This document shows, piece by piece, positions 1,744 through 28,102 of a DNA stretch of 64,000 nucleotides; within the stretch, counting starts at the first letter, position 1; each line of letters starts with the position of its first letter. The notes under the pieces were generated by a model. The model was not told the DNA's origin and did not search any database. It worked only from the letters and a program-made list of their open reading frames with translations. Made by a program: the position numbers and the translations under genes. Origin of the DNA: Antedon mediterranea (Eukaryota; Animalia; Echinodermata); NCBI RefSeq assembly GCF_964355755.1, contig NC_092673.1:18535648-18599647 (forward strand). Direction: 5' to 3'.

Positions 1744-2295
1744 ATTCTAAAACCTACAACAATTTCCGAATTCTAAAAGCTAGTCTTGGTAAATGCTTTG
1801 TCGGTGAAAGATACCGTTGGATAAGGTTCCTACTATTTGATAAGTTGGATGTCAGTGAAATTACAAATATAGATTTCAATGGATATGACTTACTCAATCA
1901 CCTTGAACACAAAGGTTTAATCTCACCAACTAATGTTAACTTGCTGTTAGAGATTACAAATACATCTGAAATCCAACAGGCCAAAGATCTTGTATCAAAG
2001 TATATGAGAAACAACAACATTCAGAATAGACATACTGGTAAAACCAAGTTGTCGTCTTACAGAAAGCGACTGTTCAAGGCCCTGAAACAAGTTGACCCAG
2101 ATGCATTCAGTAACATTATTTCTTTCTACAAGTTAAGAAAATATAGCTTCTCCAATGTTTGGGATGCAGTTCTCCATCTGGAGAAAGAGGAAGAATTAGC
2201 AGATGATCCAGACAAAATACAAATATTTGCAGATCGTCTTGGAGGAAAAGCAAGAAAAATACTGTTGGAGTATAATGTTGTTACAGAATTTGAAG
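1744..2295 (+). CDS. Gene 1 internal exon: tandem death-effector-domain (DED)-like module #1 (phase 1-1, 552 nt)
   Basis: Acceptor ttttatttgcag|, donor GAAG|gtaatt. Open frame SKTYNNFRILKASL...FLLFDKL...DLLNHLEHKGLISPTNVNLLLEI...LSSYRKRLFKAL...WDAVLHLEK resembles the DED1-DED2 pattern of caspase-8/cFLIP prodomains. Confidence 0.8.
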
Positions 2296-2379
2296 GTAAT
2301 TGTAATGTAACTATTCACATCTTTCATTTGTTTTAAAATTTTATATGATGTTAATTTAGTTTTTAAAAAAAAACATGAA

Positions 2380-2765
2380 AAATATTCCAATTGAACAGTC
2401 AAATGAGTTAATGAGTTTCCTATTTTTACATGCGCTGATAATTGGTTGTACATCAAATATATGACGTCATATATATTATTTACGCCTATTCTTCTTAATT
2501 TTAATAATATAAAATTATGATTTATGCTGTCAAAGGCATGTTTGAGATCAACGAAGCAACACAATATTCTACCCTTTTTTTTACTTAAATATTGTTGAAT
2601 TATGCTGTTAAGAATGAAAATATTATTTAATGTGCGTAATCTCTTGCGAAAACCTGATTTTTCTTGATAAATAATGTTATTGTTTTCAGTATGGTTAGTC
2701 ATTCTAGTGTTAAGGATGTTTAAAAATATTTTGGCAAGAATTGGAATTAGAGAAATGCCCCTATA
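2380..2765 (-). mobile_element. Degenerate non-LTR retrotransposon RT fragment
   Basis: Minus-strand translation SGFRK..RTLNNIFILNSIIQQYLSKKKGRILCCFVDLKHAFDSINH gives LINE RT motifs. The same fragment with the same junction occurs at ~57297-57670. Confidence 0.8.
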
Positions 2766-3869
2766 TTAAATACTAGGCTAGGCCATGGAGGAACCCTCCA
2801 TGGCTAGGCTTACCAAATATTTATTTTGTTTCCAAATTTAGCACCAGCTGAACCACTGTTTCAATAGAAAAAAAAAATAGTCCTTGGCTGTACTGCTAAT
2901 AACTAATTGTACTGTATATTCAGTACATTGGGTGGAGTTCTAAACACCAAGCCCTTCCAAGTCCCACAAAGTATAACTAAGCTCTTACCAAGTGTATAAA
3001 GTGTATATTTTACAAAATATTTAAATTATACAAGCATGCAGAGTGTTAATAGGATTTTAATCAATAAATAAATTTAGAGCAATTATGACACATTGTACAT
3101 TCTAGGCTGATGGATTATTTAAATTTTTTTATTATTATTATTTTACAAAAGTAAAGACATGCATTCACTTTATGTCCACTGCCTCCGCAGGAAAAGTATA
3201 TTATTTATTAAGTTTGGTTTTGCTCTTGTCAGCATCATAATGTTATCAGACAATACATTTTCCTTACTAAATCTTTTTGTTGCGGTTCTTCAATTCTTCT
3301 TCGATTTAGTGTGAATGTCATTTACTCCTGTACTATTCGGTGAGGTTGAATATTTTAAAGCATGAATTTATTCCATACATATGAGCCTAAAAGAGCATAA
3401 AAATGACTGTTAAAAATAGGATATTAGTAAGCTGTCTCCTAAGGCGTTGTTGCATATCATTCCACTCTTAAACTATATTCTGTAATTGATTCATCATACA
3501 CTTCATATAACAAGGTAAGTTTAATATATACAGCCTGATGTAGTATGCCTCTTTACCTTTATCTGGAGTGCCACGCATGACGAGCTGCAGGCTCTGATCA
3601 TCAATGTGGATTACAAATTTCTGAGTACGCTTTCGAGTTGGGCGCATCGTCTGTTGGTGTTGCCTTGCCAGTTATTGTGTCTGTCAATTTCAATCCGGCC
3701 AGATGGGCTAGTAGAAAATGAGTGGACCATAATTCATAATGTTCTGCTTCCCCGTCAAAATTCATTCATTCATTCATTCTGCTTTTATTCAATATTTCTC
3801 TTTGCAGTATTTTATTTTATTTTATTTTATTTTTATTTATTCAATCAAAACCAACAGCGATAAATACCG

Positions 3870-4210
3870 CCACTAACAGGTTTGAAACATAAAACAATAC
3901 AACATCAAAAACGGTTAACAATAAAATACAGATAAAATATATATATATATATATATAAAACATAGATTGTCATGCCATAAAAAATTTCAATTAAAACAGG
4001 TTATGCAGACTGTTCAAGAAGTGAACACATCATCGTCCTCTTAAAATAACCAAGTCTATCATTAAAAATATCGATATGATTGCTATTTAGATTATTAAAT
4101 GTATAAGGTAGTCTATGAAAAAGTCCCCTCTTAGTACAGTCGACACGGCTAAAAGGAATATGCAATAAATGTCTATTTCGTGTACGACCAGGAACATTTA
4201 AACTAAATAG
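3870..4210 (-). mobile_element. Probable 3' remnant of a CR1-group LINE
   Basis: Minus strand reads ...HIPFSRVDCTKRGLFHRLPYTFNNL...DIF, typical of a CR1-like ORF2 C-terminus, followed by an A-rich tail. Confidence 0.45.
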
Positions 4211-4369
4211 TATATATAAAATAAAACTGAATTGCGAGAGATTTACATATAAAATTGGTACAAGCTTTCAAACATCAAAATTTACAACATTAAAAAGTTA
4301 AAAAGTTAAAAAAAAAATATTTTTAAAAAGGAGATATTACACATGGAGGAAACTGATGAAAGTACTTAT

Positions 4370-6915
4370 TACTTATTATTATTATTATTGTTGTGTTTAT
4401 TTTGGTTTATTAATTAGTCTACACAGTGCTGGGAAACATGAGTTGTTGAATCTTTTAGTATTGCCATATATTTCACTTTGCTTCTTAGCATTCCTAAGTA
4501 TCCTGCCACACGTTTCGCCTCTCAAGTTAGGGACGATTTTGTTAAGATTTTTAGCAAAATCAAGAAGAATATCTTCTCTTCTTTGATCTAAAAATTTAAG
4601 ATTAAGTAGTTTAATTGCTTGATCATAGGATGCATATTTTTGTCCGAGAATTATTCTACATGCGCGTTTCTGTATAGATTCAAGCTCCATGGATTGTGCT
4701 ATGGTTAAGGCAGAGTGCTATACCGGACACGCATATTCAGTTACAGGTCTTATGTGGCTAATATACATTTGACGCAGATGGTTACAAGGCATTCCAAATC
4801 TTTTTAAACATGTCAACATATGTAATCTCTTACTGGCTCTATTAACAACATCGTGGATATGCATATTCCATTTCAGATCATTAGTGATCTGAATCCCAAG
4901 TAACTTTAAGCATTCAACATTGGTTATTTTTATATTATTTATCGTAAATGATTTAACAGTGGGTTGAGATTTGGCAAAAGAAATGTTCATAAAGTTAGTT
5001 TTTTCAATATTAATTATCATATTATTGTCTTTGGTCCATTGTGATAGTTCGTTTAATTGATCTTGAACATTAGGCGGGGTTTTCTTGTTGTGAACTTCAC
5101 ATATTGACAAATCATCTACATACTTCCACCGATTTGGGAAGTCTCTAAGCGAATTGTTAACCATTACTTGGAAAATTAAGGGACCCAGTTTCGTCCCCTG
5201 AGGAACTCCGCAAGTTATTCCTTGCCAGTTTGAAAAACCGCCATTGAGTTTCACTCTCTGTTTACGTTCGCTCAGAAAATCACAAATCCACGGCATCAAT
5301 TCAGGTTGAACTCCAATATCAATTAACTTCTTGACAGCGATTGTATGATCAATTAGGTCAAACGCTTTACGAAAATCAACTGCAATAACCGTTGCTTCGT
5401 GTCCAGGTTTATCAAGACCTTGAAGTAAATAGTGTAACATGCTAGTAAGATAGTGACTTGTAGACGCTCCTGTGCGATTTCCAAATTGCATTTCATCTAA
5501 TTTAGGCGCGATCTTGGGTTTTATCCATGACGAGACAAAGTGTTCTAGCATGCGTACAAAAATTGGTGTAATGGATATGGGTCTGATTTGATTTAAGTTA
5601 ACCGGTCCTTTCATTTTAGGAAGTGGGGTTATGGTCGCCTCTTTCCACTTGCGCGGGACTATGCCTTGCGAGAGTGATGCGTTGTAGATGTCAACTAACG
5701 GTGATGCAATTTCAAATGCGAATTCTTTGATGACGCGAGGCGGTAGATCAACCGGGGCAACTGATTTGTTGCAGTTTATTTTCTGAAGCTGATGATACAC
5801 CTGCCAGAAGTTGAGTGTCGGTGCATAGCCACAAGGAAGGTATGATGGTAGACTATTAGTTTGTAGGGGTTCAATCTTCTGGCATATATTCGCTAGGTAG
5901 TTATTTATTAGTTCGCAAATTTTAAGCGGATCGGTTTCTTCAGTTTCTAGATTCAACACCGATTTCTTTTTATTTGTACCGCATATTTGGTTAACTTTTT
6001 GGAACCACTGCTTTGCGTTAGTGTTTTGCAGATTGTTAACTTCGTATTTGTAGTATTTAATCTTTGCTTGTTTGATTTCCCAAATTACTTGGTTTCTAAG
6101 TGTACGGAAATGGCGGGACATTCTTCCATATTTATGAAAGCTAATTTGTCTCTCCTTACAAAGTCCTTTTATTTTTGGTGTGATCCATGGTTTGTCATTT
6201 GAATGAACTTTAATTCTGCGCTTTGGAAAACAACGTTCGTATGCCAGACATAATGTTGATTCGAAAATATTTACTTTTTCATCAAGGTCGTCGGTTTCCA
6301 GTATTTCATGCCAATCTTGTGATGTTATCCATTGACCAAATCTATTGCAAGCAGATTCGCTAAAAGGCCAGAAAGACTTAATAACATTGCGGCCCTTAAT
6401 GCAGACGAATCCAGGTTTTGGTTTCCATAAAATCGAATTATGGTCACTACGACCAAAGGGTGCATGAACAACCGGTTCTTCATAATGTTGATAAGTTAGT
6501 TATAAGCAAGTCCAGAATATTACCACTGTTGTCCCTAGTTGAAGTTTTGACAACTTGTCGAAGACCAGTTGACGAGCAAAATTGTTTAACTTTCGCGCGG
6601 GCTTCGTTAAAATCACCGCTAATGAGAATCGCCGCTGACGGTGATGATGTTCTAATGCTTTCAACGGATTCTCTTAAATAACGAAGAAGTGTTGTTTGTG
6701 TACTAACTGGTTGTCCAGGGCTGTAATAAATAATACACAAATGTAAGGATGACATGATCCGTGGCGTTTTTGGTAGCGATACTCTAATCCACATACCTTC
6801 CAGAACATCTGGAATAGGAATAGGATTGATTGTGCGAGCTTTGATAGTATCCTTAATTAGTGCAGCTACGCCACCCCCTATACGATCACTCCGTCCACTA
6901 CTAAAACAAGAGTTA
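4370..6915 (-). mobile_element. 5'-truncated CR1/L2-group LINE (APE endonuclease + RT), inactivated by stops
   Basis: APE motifs GDFN, ILDLLITN and SDH (~6440-6800). RT motifs VDFRKAFD, GVPQGTKLGP and KYVDD (ORF 4718-6121). Premature stops at 4718 and 6480. (TAA)n tail near 4370-4390. Confidence 0.9.
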
Positions 6916-7146
6916 AAAAATAAAGTCGCTTAGAGCTTGTGATGCTGGGCCCATAACCTGTTGTATCCAGCTCGGCCATTTTAGGTTAGGTCCTAAGGAC
7001 ACCAACACTCAATTGAAATTAATTGCAAAAATAGTATTTCTATGCTATGTACGCTATGTGCACTAAAGTGTGTGTACAGTGCAAACAATTTTGTTATGCT
7101 CAAAATTAAAGTCTGCGAAATTGATTTTGAGCATTTTAACACACCA

Positions 7147-7958
7147 TTTTTAGTCGCGTGGAAGCGACTCTATAGTTCACTATGTTGGTCGGTCTGTCTG
7201 TCTGTCGGTCTGTCTGTCGGTCTGTCTGGCGGTCTGTCGGTCCGGTATCACTATGCGTTTTATCGCTTTCTGACCTTATCTTGATATCAGTTTAATCTAG
7301 CTAGATCAATTTTTCACAGTATATTCCTTATGGCCAGGAATCAATGTGGTTATGTTTTCACGGTGCGCAATAAAAAATTACGCGGTCTACGCACGATTTA
7401 ACGAAATCACGTTTGTAATCATATCTTCACAACCATGAATCACAATTAAATAAAATTTGGTACTCATAAATTTCAGGGCATAAAATATCATCATATGGCA
7501 ATACAATCGCGTGCGTAGCGCATGTAACGCATGCGTACGCGCGCTTAACATTTTCAAAATTTATTTTCGATGAAATAAGAGTACATTTCAGGCAATTTTA
7601 AGCGTTTACAAAATTGCCATGAGTGCGCATATTTTTGCGCGCGCACTGCGCGTTAAATGTTATTACGCACTCTTTTTGCCCGATTTCTGTTTTCTTGACT
7701 TACTTTTCAACTCGAAATTACGTTATACGAGCACGTCGAAAGTGACAGGCTACGCACGTGTAAATTTAAAAAAATAAATGTTTTTAAACATTTCAACATT
7801 TTTAAACATGTTCAGTAATTTCGGTCAGTATAGTTCACTATGTCGGTCGGTCGGTCTCTCTGTCTGTCTGTCTGTCTGTCGGTCTGTCTGTTGGTCTGTC
7901 GGTCAGTCCAGTATCACTATGCATTGTAGCACGCGACTTAATGGCTGTTGGCCTTGTT
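7147..7958 (+). mobile_element. DINE-1/HINE-like non-autonomous Helentron
   Basis: T-run start, subterminal IR AGTCGCGTG (7152) / CACGCGACT (7930), (GTCY)n microsatellites in both core repeats, 3' hairpin GGCTGTTGGCC followed by TTGTT. Confidence 0.75.
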
Positions 7959-8176
7959 ATTTTATAAAAGAGGCATTCCACATTAATTGCGACATAAGTT
8001 GACAATTTTAAAATTGTGTATTGTGCTGTACATAAATAAAATGCATAATCTTAAAACAATATGATTAACATTAACAATAGTTACGATAACTAACTTATGC
8101 TTATTAATTATACAAGAGGTTCCCACTTTGTGTTGGGCCATTGGCACATGGTTTCCTGTTTGGCTGTATGCCACAT

Positions 8177-8266
8177 ATAGTTCACTATGTCGGTCGGTCG
8201 GTCTGTCTGTCGGTCCGGTATCACTATGCGTTTTAGCACGCGACTTATGGCTGTTGGCCTTGTTTT
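8177..8266 (+). mobile_element. 3' fragment of the same DINE/HINE-like family
   Basis: ATAGTTCACTATG-(GTCY)n-...CACGCGACTTATGGCTGTTGGCCTTGTTTT has the same design as the end of 7147-7958. Confidence 0.7.
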
Positions 8267-9743
8267 ATATATATATACTGTATATTTCTATTGGAAACTT
8301 ACTTATACTTTAGAACCAGGGAACTATTTTAATTAAATTGATAATCGTCAACATGAAAAACATTTACAAATTTTTGCTGATTTTACAGTACAAATATTTT
8401 ACAAAATTGTGTTGATTTCTTAAGGTGTTCTTGTTGATTTTTGTGGTTTGCATTATTTATTTGCGGTTCGACACAATTATCTTCCAAAATTTCTATTTTC
8501 TTGTTTCATTTCGATGACTTTTAATACAGGCTATATATGGTTTGACCTTGAACAAATTCTAATAAAAGGTCTTTTGGTATTTTCTTGTAGCTTTAGGTGT
8601 GAATAATTACCAAATAATTTTGCAGCCTTCTAGTTGCTGTGTTAGTGAGATATTCAAGGTCAAAGGTCAGTGACCTTTTTTGTGGCATTTGATGGCTCAT
8701 AACTCCTCAACTCCTGGGTTTAAAAAGACAAATGTGGTGTCTTCATCTATGTTTTAGTGGTCAAACAAAAAAATAAAGTTTTTGCAAATTTCGGGTTACA
8801 TAGGATACATGTCACATAGCCTGTACTGATTTATCATGTTAATATTTAGAATTATTTTAAAACATACCGCTTGTGTGTGAAGGTACAGTAGTTAAAAAAT
8901 AGAAATTATACTGCAAATTAATAAAGTTCAAATTAAATATATGCCCCATAAAGAATCGGAATATATTGTGGGGAATAGTATTATAAAATTACATAGGGAG
9001 ATTTGATGATAAGACATTGTTTTTAAAATCGAGTGAAATCCCGATAGCTGAGTTTTATTGAGTAAGCTGGCAGGAATAACTGTAGGCTATCTTCCTTTGT
9101 CCCGTTAGGACAGAGATGTCTGCCCATGTTGCAAGCCGTAATGTCTTCTTTCTTGGGCCCACTCTGTTACGGCAGTTATTTTCAAAAGATGTTTAAATTA
9201 AATAATGTATTAATAATTATTAGGATGGTATTTATTGGAATAAACGCCTCTCCAATAAATCATCACTTTGAATAATAATCCACCCCCCCCCCCCCACAAC
9301 CCAACTATCTAATAAACGTCCATCCACATTTATAATAACACAATTATACTATTTGTAGTAGAATTCATCGCACTGTTTTCTACAATTTACCAAGCATTTG
9401 TTATTCTTTTTTACCACTTTTCATATCTATTAGAGGATTTCATTTGATTATAAATGTTACCATATTATTAAAACTAAAAAATTTAACATATATCCCTCGA
9501 ATAAGCACCTCCCTCAAATGAACTCCGCCTCCCCAAAGGGCCCTACCAAACAATAAACACTATACTTTAAAATGCTATTAATCATCTAAAACACTGTGAA
9601 ACAAAGCATTTTCAATAATGGTGACAGAAAACGTACACTTCCTAGAGGGGGAGCGAGCGAAGTTAGTTATGTAATGGTAATTTAATTTCAATAAAATAAT
9701 AATTTAATTTAAAGCTGAGAATATATTAACTGAACTTTTATAG

Positions 9744-9806
9744 GCAACAGTGAGAAGGACAAGAATGAGACTACCTCTTCAAGTCAACAATGGCAACCAA
9801 GTGAAG
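9744..9806 (+). CDS. Gene 1 small linker exon (63 nt, phase 1-1): NSEKDKNETTSSSQQWQPSE
   Basis: ttttatag| ... GAAG|gtaaat. Open and frame-preserving between the flanking DED exons. Confidence 0.65.
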
Positions 9807-10383
9807 GTAAATTACTTATAAAGTAGATTAGAGAATGATAGGGATAACAAAATAAGCCTGAATATTATGACAATGTGATAATTGTTATGATGATTTATTT
9901 ATTAATTTATTTTTAAACACCATATTTCAAGAGAGTGACCCAGCCAGCGTGAGCTGATTTGGGCCATCAACAAGACAAAACGGCAAACAAAAACAAAGAA
10001 TTATAAACATTAAAAATAAAGATTTGGACAAGATGATATAAAGATATAATGATAAAGAAGTTGGTGTTAATGAGAATGATATTACTCTAACATTAATAAT
10101 CAAAATATTTCAACAAAAGTATAAATCTGATTATTAAGACAAAAATAAAGGGAGTGGGTAGTTTTGTTGTACTGTAGTTGTTTTCTAAAGTTCTTAAACC
10201 ATTCATGATTTTAACAATAATTAAGAAAACTATGCTAATTATATAAGAAGTTCCCACTTCTGTGTTTGGCCATTGGTTCATGGTTTCCTCAATACAATAC
10301 TGTCTGTCAACTTTTTTGAAAAATTAAAACTTGTTTTTATGCATATATTTTTATATTAAAAACCTGCTTTTCTTTATCCATAG

Positions 10384-10911
10384 ATTTCTCAGAGGATGAT
10401 TTTAAACAGTTGATTGTAGACTTTGCACAATGGTTTGATCAACATGGACTCCTTAACAGGCTACAAGTTCTATTCATCGAAATGGTAGATGACTTTGAAG
10501 CAGTGAGAAGGGTTACCAGTACACGTGACCTGTTAGCACTTTCAATTGCAAGTGGGCTAATAAGTCAAACAAATCTGTCTGTACTGTATGATGCAATAAA
10601 AGTAACTGAACAATTTGGCTTTCAGTCGGTCATTAAAGAAAAGCTTCCTGCTTTCAAGAATATCAAGAAGCGTAAGGTAGCATCATTTTCACCACACACA
10701 AAACAGATTTTTAATTTGGGAAAAAGTCTTAGTGATTCAGATAAAGAAACTCTAGATGGACGATACAACTTCCCTGTTTTTAAGAAGTATGAAAACAGCT
10801 GGAGTCTGATATTAGATTTTGAACCTCGAGGGTTGCTGAGTGAAGACAAACTAGAAGAAGTTAAGGAGGTTCTTAATAGAGGTAATGTTGGAACATCCGG
10901 TTCAAATCCAG
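10384..10911 (+). CDS. Gene 1 internal exon: tandem DED-like module #2 (divergent subtype, 528 nt, phase 1-1)
   Basis: Acceptor tttctttatccatag|, donor CCAG|gtatgt. Frame DFKQLIVDFAQWF...DLLALSIASGLISQTNLSVLYD...FSPHTKQIFNLGKSLSDSD...WSLILDFEPRGLL. A possible alternative donor lies at 10881. Confidence 0.75.
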
Positions 10912-11555
10912 GTATGTTTTATTTATCATGGTAATGATGTAGATTAAGTAATACACACTACTTTTTTCATTGTAACCCATTCACAGCATATATTTTGTGC
11001 TAGAAGTCAGAGTTAAGGATTACACTATTCCCAGTGATAGTGGTTTCCCTGCTTTTGACCCCACTCAGCATTCCACTTCCTTGTGTTGTTTGTTGTGTTT
11101 AAGCGTTTGCTGAACGGAATAAAAAAAGCACAATTAACATCATTGTGCAAATTTGTGTCATGTTGAGCCACCAATTCCTATGTACTGTAGATAAAGATTA
11201 TTAATATATTTATATGATTATTGATATAATGATGATCAAGCTATGATAATGACAAAAGACAAAAAAAAACCCACAACCAAATTTGAATGACATAAATGAA
11301 TGTAGTACATTCAGTTGGTAACTGTATACATTTGAGTGGAAAAATATACAGTAAAAACACAGGGTGTAAATGTGATTATTGTATATATTATGTACTTGCT
11401 TGTGATATAATTATGCTAAACTTGATGTGGTATGGATACAGAAGCTGATGACCACAATAAAGAACAACAATTGAAGGAAATGAACAATCTTGCTTTCTAT
11501 TATAAAAAGGCTTGTATCAATTGCTGTAAATAATTTGAACATTTTCATTCTGCAG

Positions 11556-11600
11556 ATAAAGAGGAGTCAATTGTAGACTCGAAAGGTGAACCAAACTCAG
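11556..11600 (+). CDS. Gene 1 small linker exon (45 nt, phase 1-1): KEESIVDSKGEPNS
   Basis: ttttcattctgcag| ... TCAG|gtatgc. Open and frame-preserving. Confidence 0.65.
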
Positions 11601-11627
11601 GTATGCTATACTATATTTATTATCACT

Positions 11628-11790
11628 GTTGAGTGGCAGAACGGTTGAGACAGTGGAACCATAATTCATAGCCACAATATCGGAAAGGGTTCATTTACTC
11701 GCTCCATTCTTCTGGTGGTAGAACAAGTCTTCTCGGATAGTTAGGACTATAAACTGTAAGCCCAGTATACACAAAATGTTGGTGTGAACC
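11628..11790 (+). mobile_element. Degenerate tRNA-derived SINE
   Basis: A-box-like TGGCAGAACGG and B-box-like GGTTCAT, followed by a body segment GTCTTCTCGGAT...GGACTATAAAC reminiscent of conserved SINE central domains. Confidence 0.45.
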
Positions 11791-12089
11791 TAGTACATTT
11801 TTTAAATTCGACCCTAATCAGTCTCGGCCAAAGTCATGTCGGTTCCGCATCGAGTCGGCTCCTAGTTTAACTTGGCCTCACATCAACTCGGCCTCATGTT
11901 AAAACTCGCCTTCATGCCCAAAACCAATCGGTCAACACGGCGCCAAATCAAGTATGGAACAGAAAAAGTGCAAAAAAGCAAATTGATAAAAAATATTAAA
12001 TATTTCTTCATATATTTTTTAATGAAGTATGACCATAAGAGACTTTTTTACATTAAATAAATTTCAAATTGTACATAACAGAGGCTTAA

Positions 12090-12541
12090 AGCCTGTTTTC
12101 CTGTCGACGTTATTCAACACTATCGTGTAATTGGCAAGAAAAAGTACTTATTTAACTAACAACGATCGACATTGACAATCGCTAGAGTTGAATACAGTTC
12201 AACTCTAGCCGATATCGCAACGCTAAAACGTAAGCATTGACTCATCTTGGCAATACAGCACATGAGGTCACATAATTGATGGGAAAATTCTGCTGACTAC
12301 ATTTATTTTTGTTGCATCGGGATGTGGTCAAAGCTAGGCTTAGCCAAAGTGACTATAAAATCATGTTTCGGAAAGTAGGCATGGGGATATTAGGTAAGTC
12401 TAAGTCTTTAGCCTTGTCCAAAATGCTATTTGGACTAGGATAGGCCTACTGAGAAAAAAGAACCATCTGAGTATCGAGATAGCAGTATGCCTAGGCCACA
12501 CTAGATGATAGCGTCGACTAACGTTGACAGGAAAACAGACT
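12090..12541. mobile_element. PIF/Harbinger-like MITE
   Basis: TIRs AGCCTGTTTTCCTGTCGACGTTA / TAACGTTGACAGGAAAACAGACT, flanked by TAA on both sides. Confidence 0.8.
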
Positions 12542-12586
12542 TAAAAGGGGTTTAGGAAATCGGTCGCGTTTAATTTTGTACTTTAG

Positions 12587-12856
12587 TATATTAAGACAAA
12601 CAAAGTTGAGAATGCTAGCGATATACAGCCATTGTCACCAGTTCGAAAACGGCTTTTTAAAGCCTTTAACAAGTTCAGAAAGAGGATATGGCAAAAGAGA
12701 TTGCTTACTACGAATTGAGAAAATTTGGCTTCCAAAATATTTGGGATGTGGTATTCAAATTAGAGAGAATCGGAGCATTAGAAGATGAACCAAGTAAAAT
12801 AGAGAACTTTGCACTTCGTCTTAATCGACGTGCAAAGGATATACTACTTGATAGAG
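12587..12856 (+). pseudogene. Broken tandem-DED exon (second half only, 1-nt frameshift)
   Basis: YIKTNKVENASDIQPLSPVRKRLFKAF/QVQKEDMAKEIAYYELRKFGFQNIWDVVFKLERIGALEDEPSKIENFALRLNRRAKDILLDR then G|gtac. It aligns by eye with the 3' half of exon 1744-2295. Frameshift near 12668; the 5' half is missing. Confidence 0.8.
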
Positions 12857-13986: not shown

Positions 13987-14064
13987 ATTTACCAAGTTTT
14001 GTTAGTGAACGGTTTGAGAAACTAATGGTTGAAGAACAGAAAACAAAGCTTAAACCAGTGATTG
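13987..14064 (+). CDS. Gene 1 small linker exon (78 nt, phase 1-1): LPSFVSERFEKLMVEEQKTKLKPVI
   Basis: ttttttag| ... ATTG|gtaagt (consensus donor). Open and frame-preserving. Confidence 0.7.
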
Positions 14065-16580: not shown

Positions 16581-19500
16581 AAAGGGGACTAGATGCCGCC
16601 TATAATCTGGCCCCCCATACTAAATACGACAATTTTAAGGCAAAATACTTAGGGAATTCAGATAATATTGATTTGTTACTTAACGACAGAAATTACGTTA
16701 AAGGAAATTTACCAGATGGTAGAAATGTTTTAACTTTATTTGACAGTGGTTCAACTAGAACTATAATCTCACAATCGTACGTTAATTCCTCACTTTATTT
16801 ATCGCGTTTAAAGCCAGTTAAAGTGAACACAACTAAATTTCGATTAGGTAACGGTGACTTCTTATATGCCAACCACTTAGTGCAATTCGAATTATTTATC
16901 CAAGGACACAAATTTAAAATGTCAGCATTAATCGTTAAAAATTTGACAGGTATTGACCTGATACTTGGAACCGAAACATTGTCTGAACTCGACGGTACTT
17001 TAAATTTTAAGGAAAACACATTTCGCATTAGACCAAAGATTTTTAGCTTTCGTCCTGTACACAAGCTTTTTCTTAAACCCGGTGATACTAAAACAGTTAA
17101 ATTAAAAGGAAGGGTTCCCGCCTTTGTACGCAATTCTGATGTTGTTCTACATGCAACCACCCATATTTCAAAACTTTGTCCATCAGATATGTTAGTAAAA
17201 TTACATAGAGGAGAAACCAACATTGATATCACTAACAACACAAACAGAAACGTATCTCTAAATACACATCAACCTATCGCGAGCCTTCACTTAACCAACC
17301 TTGTAACAGTTACTAACGACCTACCAATTGATAGAATAAAGTTGACCAATGACAACGCAAACAAGTACCCACATTTAGAACGTACAGACCCATTGCTAAC
17401 TTTAACCGAGGAAGAAATAATTAGAAAACAAGTTGATTTAACAGACAGCGTTTTAACACATAGAGAAAAAGAAGATTTGTATAAAACCTTACAACAAAAC
17501 AGAAACGCATTTTCACTTTATGGTGAACTATCTAGCTGCCCAAACTTCAAAGCTGACATACACCTCTCTAACGATGAACCATTTTTTATTCGACCATACT
17601 TCGCGACAGACAAAGACAAAAATGTTATTGAGGCCGAATTGAACAAATTAGTCAAACTAGGAATCTTAGCAGTAGGACACCAATCGTATACTTCCCCTGT
17701 CCTTCTTGTTTCAAAGAAAAATTCAAAAGATAAAAGAGTTGTCACAGACTTTCGCTATCTCAATTCCAGGATAAAACGTATTAATCACCCATTCCCATTA
17801 TTGGCCGAAACTTTGAAAACAATAGGTAACGCTAATGCACAGATTCTTAGCGTAATTGATTTGAAATCAGCGTTCCACTGTGTACCATTAGCCGAACATG
17901 CCCAACAATACACAGGTATAGCTTCATATCATGGTGGAAAGCATTATTATTATAAGAGATTAGCACAAGGATTAAACGTTTCGCCAGGTATATTTCAAGC
18001 AAAGATTGACGAAATTTTAAATGAAATCCCAAATTCTAGAGAATTCTGTATCGCCCATCACGATGATATTATCTTATTTAGCCAAGACAAATTTGCTCAT
18101 AAGCAGCACCTTGTTTCCGTTTTACAAGCCCTACAATTAAATGGTTTTAGAATTTGTCCAAAGAAATGTAAGTTATTCAAGAATAAAGTGCAATATATGG
18201 GACACACCATCCTGATTAATTCTTCAGGACACGCATGTATCACACCATTAGGCGACAGGTGTGCAGCTATCCGAAATTTGCCAGTCCCACGAACCCATAA
18301 AGAAACTAAACGATTTATTGGTGCAGTAAATTATGTATCCCATTTTTTCCCTCAAATACAATCAATTTTACGTCCGTTACATACACTCGCGAGTAAACGC
18401 CGAAAATTTGTTTGGTCTACTGACCACCAGAAAGCATTTGACGAAATTAAACAATTAATGGTTAAACCACCAACTCTTCAAATGCCTAGAAAATAAGGTA
18501 GATTTACGCTATATAGCGACACTTCAAGAACCGCAACAGGTTCATATTTAACACAAACAGTAAACGGTAAAGAACACATAATAGGTTATTATTCCAAAAT
18601 CTTACCACAAGCCTGTCAACGATATAGCGTCACAGAATTAGAGTTATTTGGACTTTACATTAACGTTTCAGCATTTCGACATTTACTAAAGGGTTGCGAA
18701 TTTGATGCATTCGTAGACCACTCAGCAATTGTACAAATTTGGAATTCAAAAGATCAGCCATGTACACCCCGTTTACAGAAACTAATATTACGATTGTCCG
18801 GATACATTTTCCAAATTGGTTATAAGAAAGGAACTGAATTAGTTTTAGCAGATTTTCTCTCCCGAGCCCCTCGTGACGACGATTCCGAAATTGATCAAGT
18901 TGTACCCATTGCATTTAATATTACAGAGACTGAATCTCTTAACCCGATTACAAACACATCGACTTGCAGACCAGTAACAAGGTCATACGCCAAGCAAATG
19001 GGAATAAATATACCTGACCTACATAAACCCAAACCAGTACAAACGCCTGTCATTATTCAAAACCCAGTGACAACAAACACGCGACCTACACCTCAACCTA
19101 CCGCTACACCGCAAATAATCACGAGACAACAAACAAACGCACATCGATCACCGCCCATCACAACGCCACCCATCGTAACACCACCCCCAATACGTAATGT
19201 AAACATTCGACAACCTCCAGAGGAACGACTAGTAGACAAAAATAAACAAAGCAAAGACACTACACATCAAAATGTACCAGTTGAATTGTATACATCGCCC
19301 AAACCACTAGTACCCAACATAACCGAATTTAAGTCAGCACACATCCCAAAACAACAAGACTTAGATAGATTAATGGATGTTATTCAAAGAAAGATAATTA
19401 GAGATTATAACCTCCCAGTAGATGTTAAACAATTACGTGTTGAACAAGAAACTTCACCATTTTTTAAGCCAGTTTACGATTATTTAGTTCATGATATCCT

Positions 19501-22424
19501 TCCAGCTGATAAGAAAGCAGCTCGTGCAGTTCAGAATAAGTCAGAGCAGTACATATTGTGCAACGGTTTACTATTCCGTTTATTTTTCCAAGATAAAGGT
19601 GGAGAATTTGTATTGCAATTAGCTGTTCCTGAAAACTTAGCAGAGACCGTTATTTCTCAGTATCACGACAATTTGTTAAGTAGCCACCAAGGTACGATGC
19701 GTACTTACCTTACTATTAGGAAATTATTTTACATGCCCCTTATGTTCGAGAAAGTCAACAATTATACCCAAGCGTGTCTTAGATGTCAACAATTTCGTCC
19801 CAAAACCGATAAATTACGTCCTTTACACGATCGAGTACCAGCAACTTACCGTCCCTTTCATACACTCAGTCTAGATTTTAAGAGTATGCCAACATCACCT
19901 TCAGGTTTTAAACATATTATGGTAGTATGTGATGAGATAACTAGATTTTTGATTTGTGTACCTTTGAAATCCATTGATGCCGAAACAATTTGTGAAGCAC
20001 TAATTCAAAAGGTCATCAGTATTTTTGGACCCCCATCTCGTCTTATTTCAGATGCAGCAACCTCCCTTACAGGAAAATTATTAACACTATTATGTAACAC
20101 CCTTAATATTGATAGGAAAATCATCAGCGTCCACAATCACGGTAGTTTACAAGTTGAACGTCATATCCGCACCGTATCGGACCTGTTAAAGGTCAACCTT
20201 AACCAATTCGGAACAGATTGGGTTAGATTTGTATCAACAACATGTTATGCTTATAACTTGTTTTCATCCCCACATCTAGGAAACCACTCCCCTTACGAAT
20301 TAGTTTTTGGCCGCCAACCTCCAAGTTTGACCTCATTAGCATTTAACCCTATTTCAGGATTGTCTCATTCCTATGAAGAATACTTTGAACACCTCAAGAA
20401 GAAATTTCAAAACATTTCACAGACAATGCTACAATTACAGCGAACACAACAAAACGTCCAAAACTCAAAGATTTCCCAACGCTTAGAAAAAAGTCCAATT
20501 TACTCAGTAGGACAACTCGTATATTTATACAAGCCAACATCATCATCACTAACGGCAAATTCAAAGAAAATCGCCGCAGAATGGGTCGGACCTTTAGTAA
20601 TTCATGAAGTACTAGACAGAACACATTACATCCTAGCGACGATTAAAGGAGAAATACTTCGCGACGTATTCAATTATAACAGACTGAAACCCTGTTTTAT
20701 GAGAACACCCAAAGAACGCAACAATTTTACACATCTCCAAAAACTGAAACAATTGTTGAATGAACCCACCGATGATAATAACGATAAAATCCAAAACACC
20801 ATTAATGTAGTAAATGACGAAACCAATGTTGAATTTGTAGACGAACATGATAAGACACCCAACCAATTGCAATCAGATACCCTTACACATCCAACTAAGA
20901 TAGAACCCCTTAACTTGCAACCTTACATTGACTGTGTAGAGAATAACATGGGATTAGCATCCCCATTCCAAATGAAAGAAGAACAAATTAAAATGGACCT
21001 GAAATGGAATTTCGATTTTCAAGAAATTCACACATGTTATTTAAATGTATCAAATTAACACAAACCCACACAAATAAAAACAAAATGTATAGTATTTTGA
21101 GTAAAAACGAAATTTTAAGATACCATGGTAAATTAGCGAAAATTACTCACGCCATTGCAATATTCTATTTCAACGGCCGTCGGAAGCCTCTATATTCACG
21201 ACGTCACATATACATACGATGATATCGAGAGCGTGTATGCCGCCCGATAGTCAGTGTGAATGATCGACGGCCTGGAAAGATACGCGAAGCGTTGACACTA
21301 ATACTAATTTATTCAATATCTAATGTTGTTGAAATATAGGTCCCTAAAATGTACTTCGTTTGTTCTAAAACCCGAATTTAGAAGGCCTACCTCCCAAACC
21401 TTTACTAGGCCTCTATGCCCCCAATCCAGAGCGCGGAGTCGATCCACCACCCACATCATGCGGCGAGGCTCCGTTTCATGTGTATCCAAGGACCAAAGCG
21501 ATATCAACAACTTGCTGCGCTCATTGTCAAGCCAAAGTAAAATATGAATAAAATTCGTTTTCGAACTGCCTGATTCGTGACAAATAAATTATCATCTCAT
21601 ATTACTAATTTAATTCTGCTAAACTAAAAACTAAAGAAACTAACAAATTTTAGCAGTATAAATTACGAACGATATACAAAATACACGAACGGAAAATATG
21701 GATACGCATCATTGCGCACGGAGCTGTATCCCGGACAACGTTGCCAGGCCAACTTCGGTATTGCCAGAAAAAAACCGTTGATTTTAAGATTTTAAATCGT
21801 CATTTACTCGATGAATAACCGTTTATACGGTAATAATTTTATCTAAAAAAATTCTAAATACGTTTCTGCAAATGCACAAGCATTTTTTAGAAAATACTCC
21901 ATAGATTTCAAGAGTTATAGCCAAAAAACTGCAAATTTTCCATTGGAGGGATAGGAATATATTCGCAAAGTGACGTCACCCGCGAATTTTTTTGATTTTC
22001 AAATGGGGCTTTCCCCAAAAGGGCCAATTTATATTTTGTAACAATATACATTCTAGCAACACCTAATAGCCCCCAAAACATCATTCTAAAATGAAAAAAA
22101 ATCGAAAATCCATTTCAGGTCCATTTTAAGGAACAAACTAATTTAATTATGACGGCACCTAATGATTCATATATGACATTAAACCGAGGTAGATTTAAAG
22201 CAGGACATTTCCAAGTTTTAGTTTCATACTCTAAACCGACTTCAGCCAAACGCAACACTGATAAAACAAAACAAGAATCTAATGATCGCAAATTTTGGTG
22301 GAATATTGACAGATATAACGATACAGATAAATTGATTAAAGAGATCATTAATGATAAACAGATACCGATAAGTGGATCGCCAAAACGATTCATAAAACGT
22401 TTGTATAATGCAACGAATTACTGA
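16574..22424 (+). pseudogene. pol: Gypsy Pol (protease, RT, RNase H, integrase, C-terminal extension), interrupted by one stop and one insertion
   Basis: Lies in the -1 frame relative to gag. Motifs LFDSGST (PR), IDLKSAF...HHDD (RT), SDTS...TELEL...VDHSA (RH), HHCC and DDE (IN). ORFs 16673 and 18794 share a frame separated only by TAA at 18494-18496. Removing 20992-22125 and one TTAA joins it to ORF 22149-22424. Confidence 0.9.
20992..22125. mobile_element. Non-autonomous TIR DNA transposon with TTAA TSD (Kolobok-like), nested in Gypsy pol
   Basis: TTAA|AATGGACCTGAAATGGAATTTCGATTTT ... AAAATCGAAAATCCATTTCAGGTCCATT|TTAA. Purine-purine 5' termini with a TTAA TSD fit Kolobok better than piggyBac (CC termini). 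Confidence 0.85.
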
Positions 22425-23329
22425 TTTAATTTTTTTTGCAAGATTATTTTTAAATTACGACATTTGCTAAATTATTGATAGCATAGTCTACGTATTTGAT
22501 GAGATTTGTTTAGTAATGATGTGATTTCAGTTAAAAGAGAATTGAATTTATGTGTAAGTATTGATTTTGTAACGAGTTTGATAATGATTAATTTTGAATT
22601 TTGAATGATCGATATATTGAGATATTAAAAAGAACGACAATCATTTTGTAACAAATATTTTGTTTAACCTTTGAGTCGTTAATCTCAAGCATTAATTAAT
22701 TGATATACAATAACAGGAGATTTTCTTAGTACTTTTAATTGTAATTTTTTTTGACATTGAGTACAAAAGTCGAATTTGTCGATTGATTGAAATCGTAATT
22801 ACCTGTGAATATAAATGCTTAAATCGATAAAGTTGTGACGATAATGATATATTGTGGATAAGTTTGTGTCAACGGGACACACACATTTGTTTCTTTAAAG
22901 TTTTAAGTGATTGAGTTTGATATTTTGATTTTAGGCTAATCAGCCACAGTTTTCTTGAGTTTTATGTTTTAATTTGATGATTTATGTTTGAAGGCCATTA
23001 GAACGCGATGAGTTGTCGCACAATTTGACGTATGTTCAATGTAACATACTATTTTTTTAAGTTTTGTATTTTTATTTTTAACTGATTTATGTTTGATTTA
23101 CGCGAATTTTATACCAAATTCATTTTTGATTTTAATTTTTTAAAGAGAGAGAAGAGAGAGAGTGAAAGTGATAAGGTTACACTTCAGAGTCAATGGTTTT
23201 GGCTAACTCAATTTTTGCTTATATGTATAATAATGTTTTTTTCTTTTATATAACTTTAATTTTGCATGCCACTATTATAACCATTTTTATATTTTAAATA
23301 GATTAAAAAAAAAAAGGGAAACAGAGGGA

Positions 23330-24024
23330 TGTAATATAACGATATACTGTTATATTTAAGAAATCGACCTCTGTATCGGAATTTAAATAGGTTCACAAAC
23401 TTGACCCAGAAAGTCCGGAGGAGAGTTTGTCCAGATGTTTTAATGACCATTTAGTTTATAATAGAATCCCTAAAGAAAACACTTAGCTTAACTTTGCGAC
23501 CGTTCCCATCGTAAAACAATGAGATACTGACAGTTTTAAGCAGAGATTCGACAGGGCCAATTCATCATTGTAACCTCCCCAGATAAGATCAATCATTCCC
23601 ACTTAAACACCCCTGGATCAACTTAGGACCAATCGTTACCCTCACAGATGACGTAATGACATTATGCAAATGAACTGAGCCAATATACTCCCAAGTTTCA
23701 GAAGGGCCCAGACACACCTTGCAGCCACCTCACGGAGCACACACCTTACAGCCACCTCACGGAGCACACACCTTACAGCCACCTCACGGAGCACACACAC
23801 CTTACAGCCACCTCACGGAGCACACACCTCACAGCCACTTCTTCAGAAGCAGACCTACACACTTCACACCTCACTGACAGCATCATTGAACGTCCGTTCC
23901 TTATCTATACTTATAGTTGTATATTGTACTGAAGTATTATACTGAATAAATAATATATGTGTTACGACAGTCAAGCGAGTTAGAGTCTTTCATTAGTACC
24001 TCAACAACCCAACATTATATTACA
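23330..24024 (+). repeat. Gypsy 3' LTR (695 bp)
   Basis: Direct repeat of 14189-14881, with only a few substitutions and a 2-nt indel seen by eye. Confidence 0.95.
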
Positions 24025-24832: not shown

Positions 24833-25359
24833 ATCGAATGGAGTTAATTGTGGGATCCACAGGTGGAACTCTTCACCTTAAGGATGAAGACATCAAGTTG
24901 GACATACCACCTGGAGCAATAGAAGAAGGAAAAACAGTTAAAATATCACTAGAAAATATTTTGGAGGAAACAGACATGCCTGTATCTCATCCACTTGAAT
25001 CAATAATATCACCTATTGTTAAATGTGGACCAGAAGGCACCATCTTCCACAAGCCCTGTTTACTGTCATTTCCACACGATGCTGTAAATGAAGAGTTTTG
25101 GGAATTCTCTTTACTTTTTAAAGAGTGCTTTCAAGATGAATGGAAAGAAAAACCAGAAATTGATGAGAAGGACATACGTTTTACTTTAAAAGATGGTCAA
25201 TTGTGTATATATTTAAATCATTTCTGTTGTCATGGATTCATGGGTCGAATTAGAAATGTTTTTCATGCAAAAAAAAGTATAAAGTTGGGAGTTTTTGGAA
25301 AGATGCTTGTAAATGAATATAAAATTCGAGTAAAATTCTGGAAATCAGGAAAATACAGG
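24833..25359 (+). CDS. Gene 1 exon: ZU5 domain and start of UPA
   Basis: tttattctgcag| ... AGG|gtaatt. VGSTGGTLHL...IKLDIPPGAIEEG...ISPIVKCGPEGTIFHKPCLLSFPH...W...LNHFC is the UNC5/PIDD/ankyrin ZU5 signature. Confidence 0.9.
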
Positions 25360-25678: not shown

Positions 25679-25816
25679 AAAGTTGAAGAAGAAACATCAA
25701 ACCAGGGTGAGAACCTATTAGAATCAGTTACAGTTATACATTCTTTGTATAAAAACATGGAAATTAGTGTTGAAATACCAAACCAGGAATGGCAAGTAGA
25801 CGGTGAAAATATAAAA
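25679..25816 (+). CDS. Gene 1 exon: UPA-like domain, middle part (138 nt, phase 0-0)
   Basis: cacttcag| KVEEETSNQGENLLESVTVIHSLYKNMEISVEIPNQEWQVDGENIK |gtaaga. Confidence 0.75.
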
Positions 25817-26104: not shown

Positions 26105-26243
26105 ATTATACCTGCTGAGTATCTATGGTGTAAAAGACCATCAAAGACATTTTGTTTAAAAAGAAATATTTCGACAAATGTTCTGAAGGCAAAAGTATCG
26201 CTATCACAAGATTCAAATGATATTCCTGAAGTGGAAGTGAATT
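26105..26243 (+). CDS. Gene 1 exon: UPA-like domain, end (139 nt, phase 0-1)
   Basis: tttttcctctag| IIPAEYLWCKRPSKTFCLKRNISTNVLKAKVSLSQ... |gtacgt. It resembles the UNC5 UPA pattern IP..HIW....TF.L.R.....L..K..V.Q. Confidence 0.75.
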
Positions 26244-26581: not shown

Positions 26582-26611
26582 GTGATATTGAAGTATTGGT
26601 TTCAATTCCAT
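26582..26611 (+). CDS. Gene 1 micro-exon (30 nt, phase 1-1): DIEVLVSIP
   Basis: tttttttgcag| ... CCAT|gtatgt. Confidence 0.55.
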
Positions 26612-26870
26612 GTATGTTATATTGTAAACAAGTAGATTAAGTCAGTAGAAACTGTAGTAATTTAGTTTATTTTTAAATGCTTAAAAAGTAAATAATTTAT
26701 ATATTTTCTTTATGAAAAACGGAGAATTCATCCCTCCAAATACAGCAATATCTGTTATGACTAAAAGTTGCACAAACTGCATCTGTTGTTTTTGGTAGGA
26801 ATTCAAATTAACATGCTTCCTAGGACAAAAACAAAATGTTATAATAATTTGAATAATTTATTTGTTACAG

Positions 26871-26900
26871 GTAAATTTGGACCATCAAGATCAGATCCAG
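26871..26900 (+). CDS. Gene 1 micro-exon (30 nt, phase 1-1): KFGPSRSDP
   Basis: tttgttacag| ... CCAG|gtataa. Confidence 0.55.
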
Positions 26901-27428
26901 GTATAATTATTACTTATATTTATTAGTTATTTACATACATTCTCAGTAAGCAGAGGGTCCACTAATTAAAGTTTGATTCATAATTTTCAATAAGTTACAT
27001 TTTATTTGTTTACAAAGAATCCAGTTTCAACCAAGAACAACATTAGAGTGACTGTGTAAAATTTAACAGTAATAATTAAGATCTGCAGTATATTTATTTC
27101 TGAAAAAAGTTTTCTATTTGTCATGGAAAGAAATGATTTAAATGTCAAAATAAAGAAATTTAAGTAAATAAATAACCTTCTGAAATGAGGTCAAATTTAG
27201 ACCATGATTGTAAAAATTGCTCACAAAAACTGTTTAAAAACAAGTTTATCGAGTTTGCAATCATTTGGGTTTTTAAAACGGATTTTTTTTAATAGGAAAA
27301 AATTCTTTTTGTCTACGATTTCTAGTGCCAGAGAAAACAATTTTTTTTTAAATTATTGTTTTTGCCAGCAGAAACAGGCCCATAGCTTCATTATAAAAAA
27401 AATAATACTGATTTATTTCTTTTTGCAG

Positions 27429-27961
27429 TCACTGTAAATCCATGGCAAGAAAGGTTCAACAAGTTGAAACATGACCTTAGTCTACTCTATGTTGGTGATA
27501 AATTTCTCTTACTGAGATGCTGTCTCTTTGACCACATAGGTTTACTGCACCTTACTGATCCAGGTTGCACCACCGCACATTACCTATTTAACAAACTCCA
27601 TGAAAAGCGTTATATCTCGCCTACTAATGTCAGTCTATTGTTAGACATTGCTAAAGTATCAGATCTGAACGATGCTGAAATTCTTATAAATCAGTATGTG
27701 ATTGACAACAAGGTTCCAAACACTGATGAAGAAAAACTTTCACCATATAGGTCAAAATTGTGTAAGGCATTAAAACAATTTGACTTAAATACTTTAAATG
27801 GTGTAATTGCTTTCTATGGATTGGATTCAATAAAAATGCAATTTCCAACCATTTGGGATTTAGTGTTTCACCTGGAGAGAATTGGAAAATTAGTCGAAAA
27901 ATCAGAAAGAAAGAGGTTTGCTGAACTTCTTGGACCAATCGCAAACAATATACTGTTAACG
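27429..27961 (+). CDS. Gene 1 exon: C-terminal tandem DED-like module (phase 1-0)
   Basis: tttctttttgcag| ... ACG|gtatgt. Frame ERFNKLKHDL...LRCCLFD...LFNKLHEKRYISPTNVSLLLDI...LSPYRSKLCKAL...IWDLVFHLERIG is a clear paralog of exon 1744-2295. Confidence 0.8.
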
Positions 27962-28084
27962 GTATGTATTTCGTTAATTAAACATGCTTTTAAAAAACCC
28001 ACAAAAATGCCATTCACCAACCTGTAACCTAGTAGTTATATTTTTTATACAACCTGTAACCTAGTAGTTATATTTTTTATACAG

Positions 28085-28102
28085 GTACTTGCTGATGAAT
28101 GA
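28085..28102 (+). CDS. Gene 1 probable last coding exon (VLADE-stop)
   Basis: Acceptor ttttttatacag|. Phase 0 matches the previous donor; GTA CTT GCT GAT GAA TGA. Confidence 0.55.
   Translation, partial: VLADE

Follow-up and report, generated by a model that had tools for sequence, protein, structure and literature searches.

The exon chain

This report concerns a gene in a 64,000-nucleotide stretch of the genome of the crinoid Antedon mediterranea (contig NC_092673.1, positions 18,535,648 to 18,599,647). The whole stretch is called the window, and positions are counted from its first letter. On its + strand, 12 exons between positions 1744 and 28102 had been joined by an original prediction into about 890 open codons, with tandem death effector domain (DED) modules on both sides of a ZU5-UPA unit. 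A direct check of the letters bears out the chain: AG acceptors (12/12) and GT donors (11/11) are in place, the phases are compatible, and the spliced sum is 2681 nucleotides, or 893 codons including the stop. Entry in phase 1 at position 1744 is required. In this phase all exons are open and the chain runs to the TGA at 28100–28102; the phase-0 reading has stops throughout and was ruled out. Because exon 1 enters in phase 1 and a frame check found no in-frame ATG at its 5′ end, the 12-exon model is incomplete on that side. The new finding is that a crinoid family undescribed in the literature searched includes a ZU5-UPA-tandem-DED protein that is expressed and whose predicted self-cleavage site is intact.

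The 3′ part of the chain begins with exon 6 (24833–25359), which encodes ZU5 and the start of UPA (Pfam ZU5, E 5e-21) and whose best sequence match in the PDB is UNC5b (E 7e-13). UPA continues through exons 7 (25679–25816) and 8 (26105–26243) and ends in exon 9 (26582–26611). A 10-codon linker, exon 10 (26871–26900), leads to the C-terminal tandem DED in exon 11 (27429–27961), a type-B module (the two types are described below) in which 158 of 176 residues are identical to the paralogue P0002. Exon 12 (28085–28102) supplies the last five residues and the stop, giving the same C-terminus as in P0002. With the stop five residues past exon 11, the DEDs are not followed by a caspase or pseudo-caspase domain.

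Upstream, exon 1 (1744–2295) encodes a type-B tandem DED (Pfam DED, E 1.8e-5) that is 73–78% identical to modules of the paralogues P0011, P0012 and P0028. The P0028 model has the same N-terminal boundary; all paralogue gene models used here are automated predictions. Exon 2 (9744–9806) is a 21-codon linker between type-B and type-A tandem DEDs, with strong splice sites and a match to the corresponding linker of P0020 (E 2e-5). Exon 3 (10384–10911) encodes a type-A tandem DED and an in-frame 30-nucleotide linker (10882–10911), and read-through past its donor meets a stop at 10934, the end of the open reading frame (ORF). Exon 4 (11556–11600), a 15-codon micro-exon, is the least secure of the 12. 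It is apparently a relic of the start of a ZU5 exon, judging from 38/60 nucleotides of identity to the acceptor region of that exon. Its splice sites rank in the top 1.6% and 0.8%, and none of the paralogue models has it as an exon. Exon 5 (13987–14064) is the linker before ZU5, with 23 of 26 residues identical to P0002. Its in-frame ATG at 14025 is a possible start for a 484-residue ZU5-UPA-tandem-DED protein, and the P0003 model starts at the matching Met.

Both boundaries of exons 1–5, 9 and 10 are in phase 1, as are the entry points of the last DED exon and of the ZU5-UPA block taken as a whole. These common boundaries make exon shuffling possible. A homology search of positions 1–1743 found no homologue of a linker exon. 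At 1735–1750 the window reads Phe-Ala-Asp where several paralogues begin Met-Ala-Asp/Glu, and these codons contain the acceptor AG, as would be seen had an initial exon turned into an internal one.

Transcript evidence and public annotation

Introns 6–11, six of the 11, are bridged with GT..AG ends by one 1270-nucleotide contig of sequencing run X1, which begins at 25078. The contig joins 26611 to 26871 and so carries the chain from the end of UPA into the linker and the last DED module. Since X1 splices exons 6–12, ZU5, UPA and the tandem DED form one reading frame. In run X2, which is DNA-like, the same introns are unspliced and none is bridged. X1 is taken as RNA solely on its six spliced joints, the run type being a guess. 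The prediction that the exons form one gene is thus borne out by RNA for introns 6–11. For introns 1, 2 and 5, support comes solely from automated paralogue models (P0020, P0032 and P0013; P0002 and P0003), and for introns 3 and 4 solely from splice-site strength and homology.

The X1 contig differs from the window at two letters in 25078–25358 and at 3 of 559 letters in the ZU5/UPA pieces. In exon 11, 57 of 535 letters differ, and several of the changes match the paralogue P0003; exon-level gene conversion could account for this pattern, as could a divergent allele or a paralogue of very recent origin. Positive selection on exon 11 is not supported: of the 22 variant codons listed, 10 carry silent changes, where the exon offers 3.7 replacement sites for each silent one, which gives a rough replacement/silent ratio of 0.33 from the 26 of 57 differences listed.

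Public annotation covers part of this gene. Exons 6–9 are letter for letter those of P0022 (XP_071948785), a 285-residue A. mediterranea RefSeq protein named 'netrin receptor UNC5B-a-like'. P0022 reads through the donor at 26611, then stops, and lacks every DED exon. Because X1 splices from 26611 onward, the RefSeq stop is wrong for the X1 transcript. The name is a misnomer, a label given by ZU5 similarity. A search with the ZU5 exon retrieved eight A. mediterranea proteins. P0002 was considered as the orthologue and rejected, since P0022 is identical to the window; P0002 is a paralogue.

Domains and predicted folds

The three modules of about 175 residues match Pfam DED only below the cut-off (E 2e-5, 0.008 and 0.07). 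Structure prediction gives a clearer picture. The AlphaFold2 model of the exon 3 module, with a predicted local distance difference test score (pLDDT) of 90, matches a chain of a caspase-8/cFLIP assembly with Z 15.6 and a root-mean-square deviation (rmsd) of 2.6 Å over 158 aligned residues, and unrelated folds reach Z ≤4.5. Assemblies containing cFLIP are among its top fold matches. Foldseek alone found no match for this model under E 0.001; the Atlas clusters nearest to the exon 3 module are DED proteins.

For the rest of the protein, P0002 was modelled as a stand-in, being 80% identical in ZU5 and 90% in the last DED module (pLDDT 85; predicted template modelling score, pTM, 0.62). Its fold matches include the ZU5-UPA of UNC5b (Z 23.8, 22% identity), CARD8 (Z 16.0) and rat NLRP1 (Z 15.3), and it matches the tandem DED of caspase-8 with Z 16.4 and rmsd 2.5 Å over 163 aligned residues. 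The exon 3 model and P0002, the latter standing for exon 11, therefore agree with the prediction that the modules are paired death folds, and ZU5-UPA is present as had been proposed. A tandem-DED fold is likewise expected for exon 1, which is 38% identical to exon 11. Neither exon returned a DED when its single sequence was searched against the PDB; profile searches did.

No caspase, NACHT, leucine-rich repeat (LRR) or transmembrane part was found in the 12 exons (Pfam; highest 19-residue hydropathy 1.5), as had been predicted. This holds for the exons in the model. A sensor domain may lie beyond its missing 5′ end, since the modules nearest to exon 1 come after Roc-COR or UPA in their proteins. 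Pfam Death gave no match in the window exons or in the paralogues scanned, and Pfam FIIND gave none at E up to 1 in the ZU5 exon or eight paralogues. Ig and TSP1 domains were found neither in the 12 exons, whose model leaves the 5′ end outside, nor in the eight paralogues scanned. A tblastn search with Roc-COR paralogues did not find Roc-COR in the window.

A predicted self-cleavage site

The codons at 25219–25227 (+ strand) encode His-Phe-Cys at the end of ZU5, a predicted autoproteolysis site at which the chain would be cut between Phe and Cys. The X1 contig has no listed difference in these codons. The position was surveyed in 114 ZU5 rows, 18 of them gapped at the site. Phe followed by Ser, Thr or Cys occurs in 87 of 90 non-receptor rows and in none of the six UNC5 receptors that bear Ig/TSP domains. 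All 17 crinoid rows have it, a count that includes the window twice and two isoform-like pairs. In the columns beside the nucleophile, just 4–21 of the 90 rows have Ser, Thr or Cys. These three are the residues able to act as the nucleophile in autoproteolysis of the ZU5/FIIND type, according to PMC9162469. The position switches among exactly these three, and such free exchange is expected of a nucleophile and not of a packing residue.

Structural alignments place the motif in register with known cleavage sites. The NLRP1 chain 6x6a_G aligns from its residue 1214 to residue 201 of the P0002 model, one past the Ser of His-Phe-Ser. Opposite the motif Phe lie the ends of two latrophilin GAIN chains; these, like the NLRP1 chain, are cleaved fragments. 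In the P0002 model the motif sits in the turn before the last ZU5 strand. CARD8 is cut in this turn, and its two pieces stay bound. The motif Phe also aligns with UNC5b Leu677 (numbering checked against Cys663, Glu666 and Cys670), a residue that has been equated with CARD8 Phe296 (PMC3210808). This register strengthens the predicted likeness to PIDD and CARD8.

A conserved motif need not be cleaved. An alternative reading has ZU5-UPA serve as an uncleaved binding supramodule, as in UNC5, ankyrin and UNC5CL, that holds or autoinhibits the DEDs, with a motif of structural value. It would suit the position of UNC5b as the best match in both sequence and fold, and the ZU5 of ZO-1, which ends His-Phe with no nucleophile after it. 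The motif is missing from all six UNC5 receptors, however, and present in 87 of the 90 other rows, and the exchange of Ser, Thr and Cys fits a nucleophile. We regard an uncleaved scaffold as improbable. Autoproteolysis of ZU5 by the Cys thiol is, on this pattern and by analogy with the cleaved proteins, probable in the window protein.

Among non-crinoid, non-receptor ZU5 rows, Phe-[Ser/Thr/Cys] occurs in 70 of 73. Many of these are ZU5-UPA-Death proteins, and one named example is filed as 'UNC5B-like'. The survey suggests that many invertebrate 'UNC5-like' proteins may be self-cleaving immune adaptors and not guidance receptors.

Continuity of the 5′ half

A tandem DED on both sides of ZU5-UPA had been predicted. 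The C-terminal one is in the X1 frame; for the N-terminal side the question is whether exons 1–5 belong to the same transcript as exons 6–12. The donors of exons 1–4 rank in the top 0.03–0.8% of 3624 GT sites scored with a matrix trained on the six confirmed introns, the exon 3 donor at 10911 standing in the top 0.03%. Across the whole + strand, eight open phase-1 candidates of 27–90 nucleotides score at least as high as the weakest confirmed sites; four of these are proposed exons, and two of the four are training sites. The splice-site strength of exons 1–4 exceeds chance. An alternative acceptor at 1729 and an alternative donor at 10881 scored poorly (top 37% and 33%) and were rejected. In neutral simulations without insertions or deletions, the fraction of runs that kept the frame open was 0.22 for exon 1 and 0.12 for exon 3, so that both exons would be open jointly in about 0.22 × 0.12, which argues for continuity.

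Paralogue architecture bears on the same point. The last 30 nucleotides of exon 3 are identical to linker exon 10 (26871–26900) at 23 of 30 positions. Where its paralogues have a stop codon, exon 3 has none and runs in frame into a linker like those found before ZU5. The models of P0020, P0032 and P0013 have a type-B tandem DED, a linker and a type-A tandem DED, as exons 1–3 would; in those of P0002 and P0003 the exon-5 linker leads into ZU5; and that of P0004 runs from a type-A tandem DED through a linker to ZU5-UPA and a type-B tandem DED.

The simplest alternative is that there are two genes. Exons 1–3 would then either form the 3′ end of a separate gene that encodes type-B and type-A tandem DEDs and stops at 10934, or be a duplicate in decay. 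The 484-residue ZU5-UPA-tandem-DED protein would begin at the exon 5 ATG (14025) or in a further exon outside the model. The five paralogue models closest to exon 3 (P0001, P0032, P0168, P0013 and P0020) end 0–9 residues after the module, as two genes would require, and the P0003 model begins at the Met matching 14025. At 100% identity, exon 1 is found in no database protein of 100–2000 residues. A decayed DED duplicate lies in intron 4 (12583–12864) and a young long terminal repeat (LTR) element in intron 5, and exon 3 may owe its strong donor at 10911 to the linker exon fused to it. Introns 1–4 are also not among the X1 joints listed for 1650–14180 (15 of 26 listed, with repeats crowding), which is no evidence of silence; because repeats crowd the joint list, this blank is uninformative.

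Set against two genes are the missing stop and in-frame linker of exon 3, the fact that every splice site is strong and in phase, the tandem DED that precedes ZU5 in P0004, P0006 and P0010, and the additional coding sequence that P0002 has upstream of its matching exon. We give two genes a somewhat less than even chance and lean slightly toward a single transcript that includes exons 1–5. Self-cutting is compatible with two genes, which would bring the protein closer to CARD8.

A crinoid tandem-DED family

This tandem DED occurs together with ZU5 or UPA in 12 of 165 collected proteins, in eight domain orders. Eleven of the 12 are A. mediterranea models and one is from Anneissia japonica, with a partial DED before ZU5. 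ZU5-UPA is directly followed by a tandem DED in P0001, P0002, P0003, P0004 and P0008. Thus the architecture, which the original prediction did not recognise, has no description in the literature searched and yet recurs in the same order among automated RefSeq paralogue models, so the gene is not a lone oddity. The tandem-DED modules split into types A and B (tree support 100/100), and the modules of the window nest among those of A. mediterranea. Near-identical type-B modules occur in different architectures. The exon 1 module, for instance, clusters (98/96) with modules placed after Roc-COR or UPA, and Roc and/or COR is present in 9 of 11 longer exon-1 relatives (seven by precomputed Pfam; P0015 and P0018 by eye). 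By these comparisons, the window gene is one arrangement in an expanded, exon-shuffled crinoid family.

Other members join the same tandem DED to Roc-COR, NACHT-LRR, RING/B-box-NHL, URGCP GTPase, PARP14-like and kinase domains. Such fusions are seen in P0023, P0026, P0037, P0041, P0048, P0052, P0056, P0082, P0108, P0110 and P0136, and the set includes four copies of Roc and an LRR-Roc-COR-Death arrangement. P0004 (XP_071965522, A. mediterranea) combines Roc-COR, a type-A tandem DED, ZU5-UPA with His-Phe-Cys and a type-B tandem DED; as a putative Roco GTPase with a PIDD-like tail, it is the best sensor candidate of the family. Strongly hydrophobic segments (19-residue mean 2.6–3.3) occur in P0003, P0006, P0014, P0017, P0025 and P0033, and membrane-anchored forms may exist. 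Many members seemingly lie on the contig of P0022, which is consistent with a gene cluster.

In a family of this kind, the window gene could be a by-product of birth-and-death shuffling, a transcribed and dispensable copy without a function of its own. Decayed copies lie nearby, a young LTR insertion occupies intron 5, and many domain orders occur only once. Dispensability fits poorly with six correctly spliced introns, with the recurrence of ZU5-UPA-tandem DED in P0001–P0004 and P0008, and with the rough replacement/silent ratio of exon 11, and we consider it very unlikely.

Comparison with known systems

PIDD1 (LRR-ZU5-ZU5-UPA-DD, where DD is a death domain) resembles the window protein in having ZU5-UPA before a death fold and a His-Phe-nucleophile motif ending ZU5, the motif being His-Phe-Ser in PIDD1 and His-Phe-Cys here. 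The window protein differs in having one ZU5, no LRR within a model that leaves the 5′ end outside, and a tandem DED in place of the death domain. CARD8 and NLRP1 (FIIND-CARD) share the ZU5-UPA fold, a cut in register with the one predicted here (CARD8 Phe296/Ser297, NLRP1 Ser1213) and a C-terminal fragment made of UPA and a death fold, likewise predicted here. They differ in sequence (7–8% identity), in that Pfam recognises ZU5 and not FIIND in the window protein, and in having a CARD where it has a tandem DED. NLRP1 uses a Pro after the nucleophile for DPP9 capture, and this Pro is present in 0 of 14 crinoid rows.

UNC5 receptors and cytosolic ZU5-UPA-DD proteins (UNC5CL-like and invertebrate 'UNC5-like') are closest in sequence and fold. 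The window protein lacks Ig, TSP1 and transmembrane parts in its 12 exons as well as a death domain, and the receptors lack the motif. Caspase-8, cFLIP and viral FLIP share the rigid two-DED fold over about 160 residues (Z 15–16, 16–18% identity), whereas the window protein has a small residue at the DED2 Phe122 position, contains two or three modules drawn from two deeply separated types, and lacks a caspase domain. On predicted domain content, membership in the PIDD1, CARD8/NLRP1 and UNC5 groups fails, there being no death domain, CARD or FIIND match.

Shuffled death-fold expansions with ZU5-UPA are already known from marine invertebrates. Kaur et al. 2021 (PMC8195603) describe a constant death-fold module with variable ZU5-UPA, GTPase and STAND NTPase partners, as in the crinoid family, and propose ZU5/FIIND autoproteolysis for effector release. 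That study is centred on TRADD-N; in its architecture file, DED with ZU5 occurs in none of the 90 of 96 ZU5 places checked, and five DED-ZU5/UPA/FIIND strings had no match in the part of the file covered. A sponge ZU5 expansion has been published as well (PMC3482391). In D'Osualdo et al. 2011 (PMC3210808), mammalian FIIND sequences named death-effector-domain-containing are labelled 'ded'; this is a possible precedent, although the label may reflect a pyrin domain. In the Atlas, the top cluster for ZU5-UPA is ZU5-UPA-Death, and ten rows pair ZU5-UPA/FIIND with Death, CARD or PYRIN and none with DED (small clusters are outside this search); chordate FIIND+PYRIN clusters are present. The open literature searched, which does not extend to subscription journals, holds no description of ZU5-UPA-DED or of the crinoid family.

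Proposed mechanism

We give about even chances to the view that the window gene encodes an autoproteolytic ZU5-UPA-tandem-DED adaptor that works like PIDD and CARD8 and belongs to neither family. After a constitutive cut at His-Phe|Cys, the C-terminal piece (about 340 residues) would remain attached to the N-terminal one, as happens in CARD8. When the N-terminal piece is lost or displaced, UPA-tandem DED would be set free. UPA would then cluster the DEDs as it does CARDs, and the DEDs would recruit DED partners and join or seed assemblies. UPA promotes CARD filaments in CARD8/NLRP1, as PMC11874512 reports, and by this analogy the sequence of release, UPA clustering and partner recruitment may be right or wrong in equal measure. 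The likeliest partners would be tandem DEDs that other family proteins carry beside Roc-COR, NACHT-LRR or kinase domains, or else FADD/caspase-8 of the crinoid, and the pathway would be innate immunity or cell death. Exons 1–5, if on the same transcript, would bring in a further two tandem DEDs, which could act at the N-terminus as input or as restraint. The architecture would have arisen by phase-1 exon shuffling in a tandem gene cluster.

Several observations weigh against this proposal. RNA support consists of one contig of one run that starts inside the ZU5 exon and possibly derives from an allele or close paralogue. The full-length P0002 model, with its pTM of 0.62, predicts no fixed packing of ZU5 against the DEDs. 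A caspase domain was found in 0 of 58 family proteins scanned. At the DED2 site of caspase-8 Phe122, the three modules have Ala, Ser or Gly (Ala-Phe, Ser-Phe and Gly-Arg in a weak profile alignment, E about 0.008), and 17 of 20 family rows have Ser, Ala, Gly or Val in the same weak alignment. Because this position holds a small residue, a filament of the caspase-8 type is not a given. The small residue speaks either for partners within the family, bound through an altered interface, or for capping.

Short cFLIP and viral FLIPs cap DED chains. By analogy, the tandem DEDs could act as a decoy or cap that binds a growing DED chain and ends it, damping signalling, with cleavage setting turnover. 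This would accord with the lack of an enzyme domain in the 12 exons, with the cFLIP-containing assemblies among the top fold matches, and with the missing Phe of the exposed Phe122/Leu123 patch in DED2; in caspase-8, F122A impairs function, with less aggregation and less Fas-induced death (PMC6233201). The small residue is family-wide, however, and is shared by N-terminal modules of apparent activators among the NACHT-LRR and Roc-COR proteins; it could be the sign of a different interface rather than of a dead end. A kept autoproteolysis motif and UPA are also more machinery than a cap needs. We therefore judge a decoy or cap unlikely, at a lower level than the release of an active UPA-tandem-DED fragment.

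A broader proposal places that release mechanism in a crinoid DED-based counterpart of the CARD8/PIDD switch: a self-cleaving family, some members with Roc-COR or membrane anchors, whose fragments would polymerise a private DED network and whose DED exon would be exchanged as a specificity module. This remains tentative, and we hold it to be rather doubtful as a whole. In the known cases, what self-cleaving ZU5-UPA delivers is either a death domain (PIDD1) or a CARD (CARD8, NLRP1). If it also delivers a tandem DED, the module would be a general release device for any death fold, inflammasome-style activation would be linked to assemblies of the caspase-8 type, and DED would be a fourth death-fold output of autoproteolytic ZU5-UPA beside DD, CARD and PYD. 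The paralogues offer a natural Cys/Ser/Thr series of nucleophiles for comparison. Domain shuffling of this sort is expected in marine invertebrates, and the function proposed here is read from anatomy.

Neighbourhood of the gene

The window holds a neighbouring family gene and two decayed copies. The decayed partial tandem-DED copy in intron 4 (12583–12864, + strand) has one frameshift (tblastn E 2e-13) and is part of a degenerate local duplication, in which 9835–10171 resembles 13059–13373 and 11170–11254 resembles 13726–13807. The LTR retrotransposon in intron 5 (14189–24024, + strand, 9.8 kb) lies in the sense of the gene, with LTRs 99.3% identical, a 4-bp target duplication and ORFs at 15612–21058 by which we read it as of the Ty3/gypsy type. 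Being young and in sense orientation, it could cut transcripts short on this allele. A second LTR element at 34874–43173, with terminal repeats >99% identical and two long ORFs, reads as BEL/Pao type. Reverse-transcriptase ORFs resembling long interspersed nuclear elements are found at 4397–6929 in intron 1 and at 28358–29980 just past the stop; an X1 contig over 4419–6913 differs from the window at 12 letters.

Farther downstream, a type-B tandem-DED exon with its own ATG (49940–50474, + strand) is identical to residues 1–179 of P0094. The last modelled exon of P0094 (52571–52615) falls in a repeat that also occurs at 34283–34327, so the end of that model is doubtful. Broken, partly inverted tandem-DED pieces at 56074–56731 are followed by sequence that shares 93% identity with the N-terminus, as modelled, of P0011, a Roc-COR-tandem-DED protein, and a further family gene may follow there.

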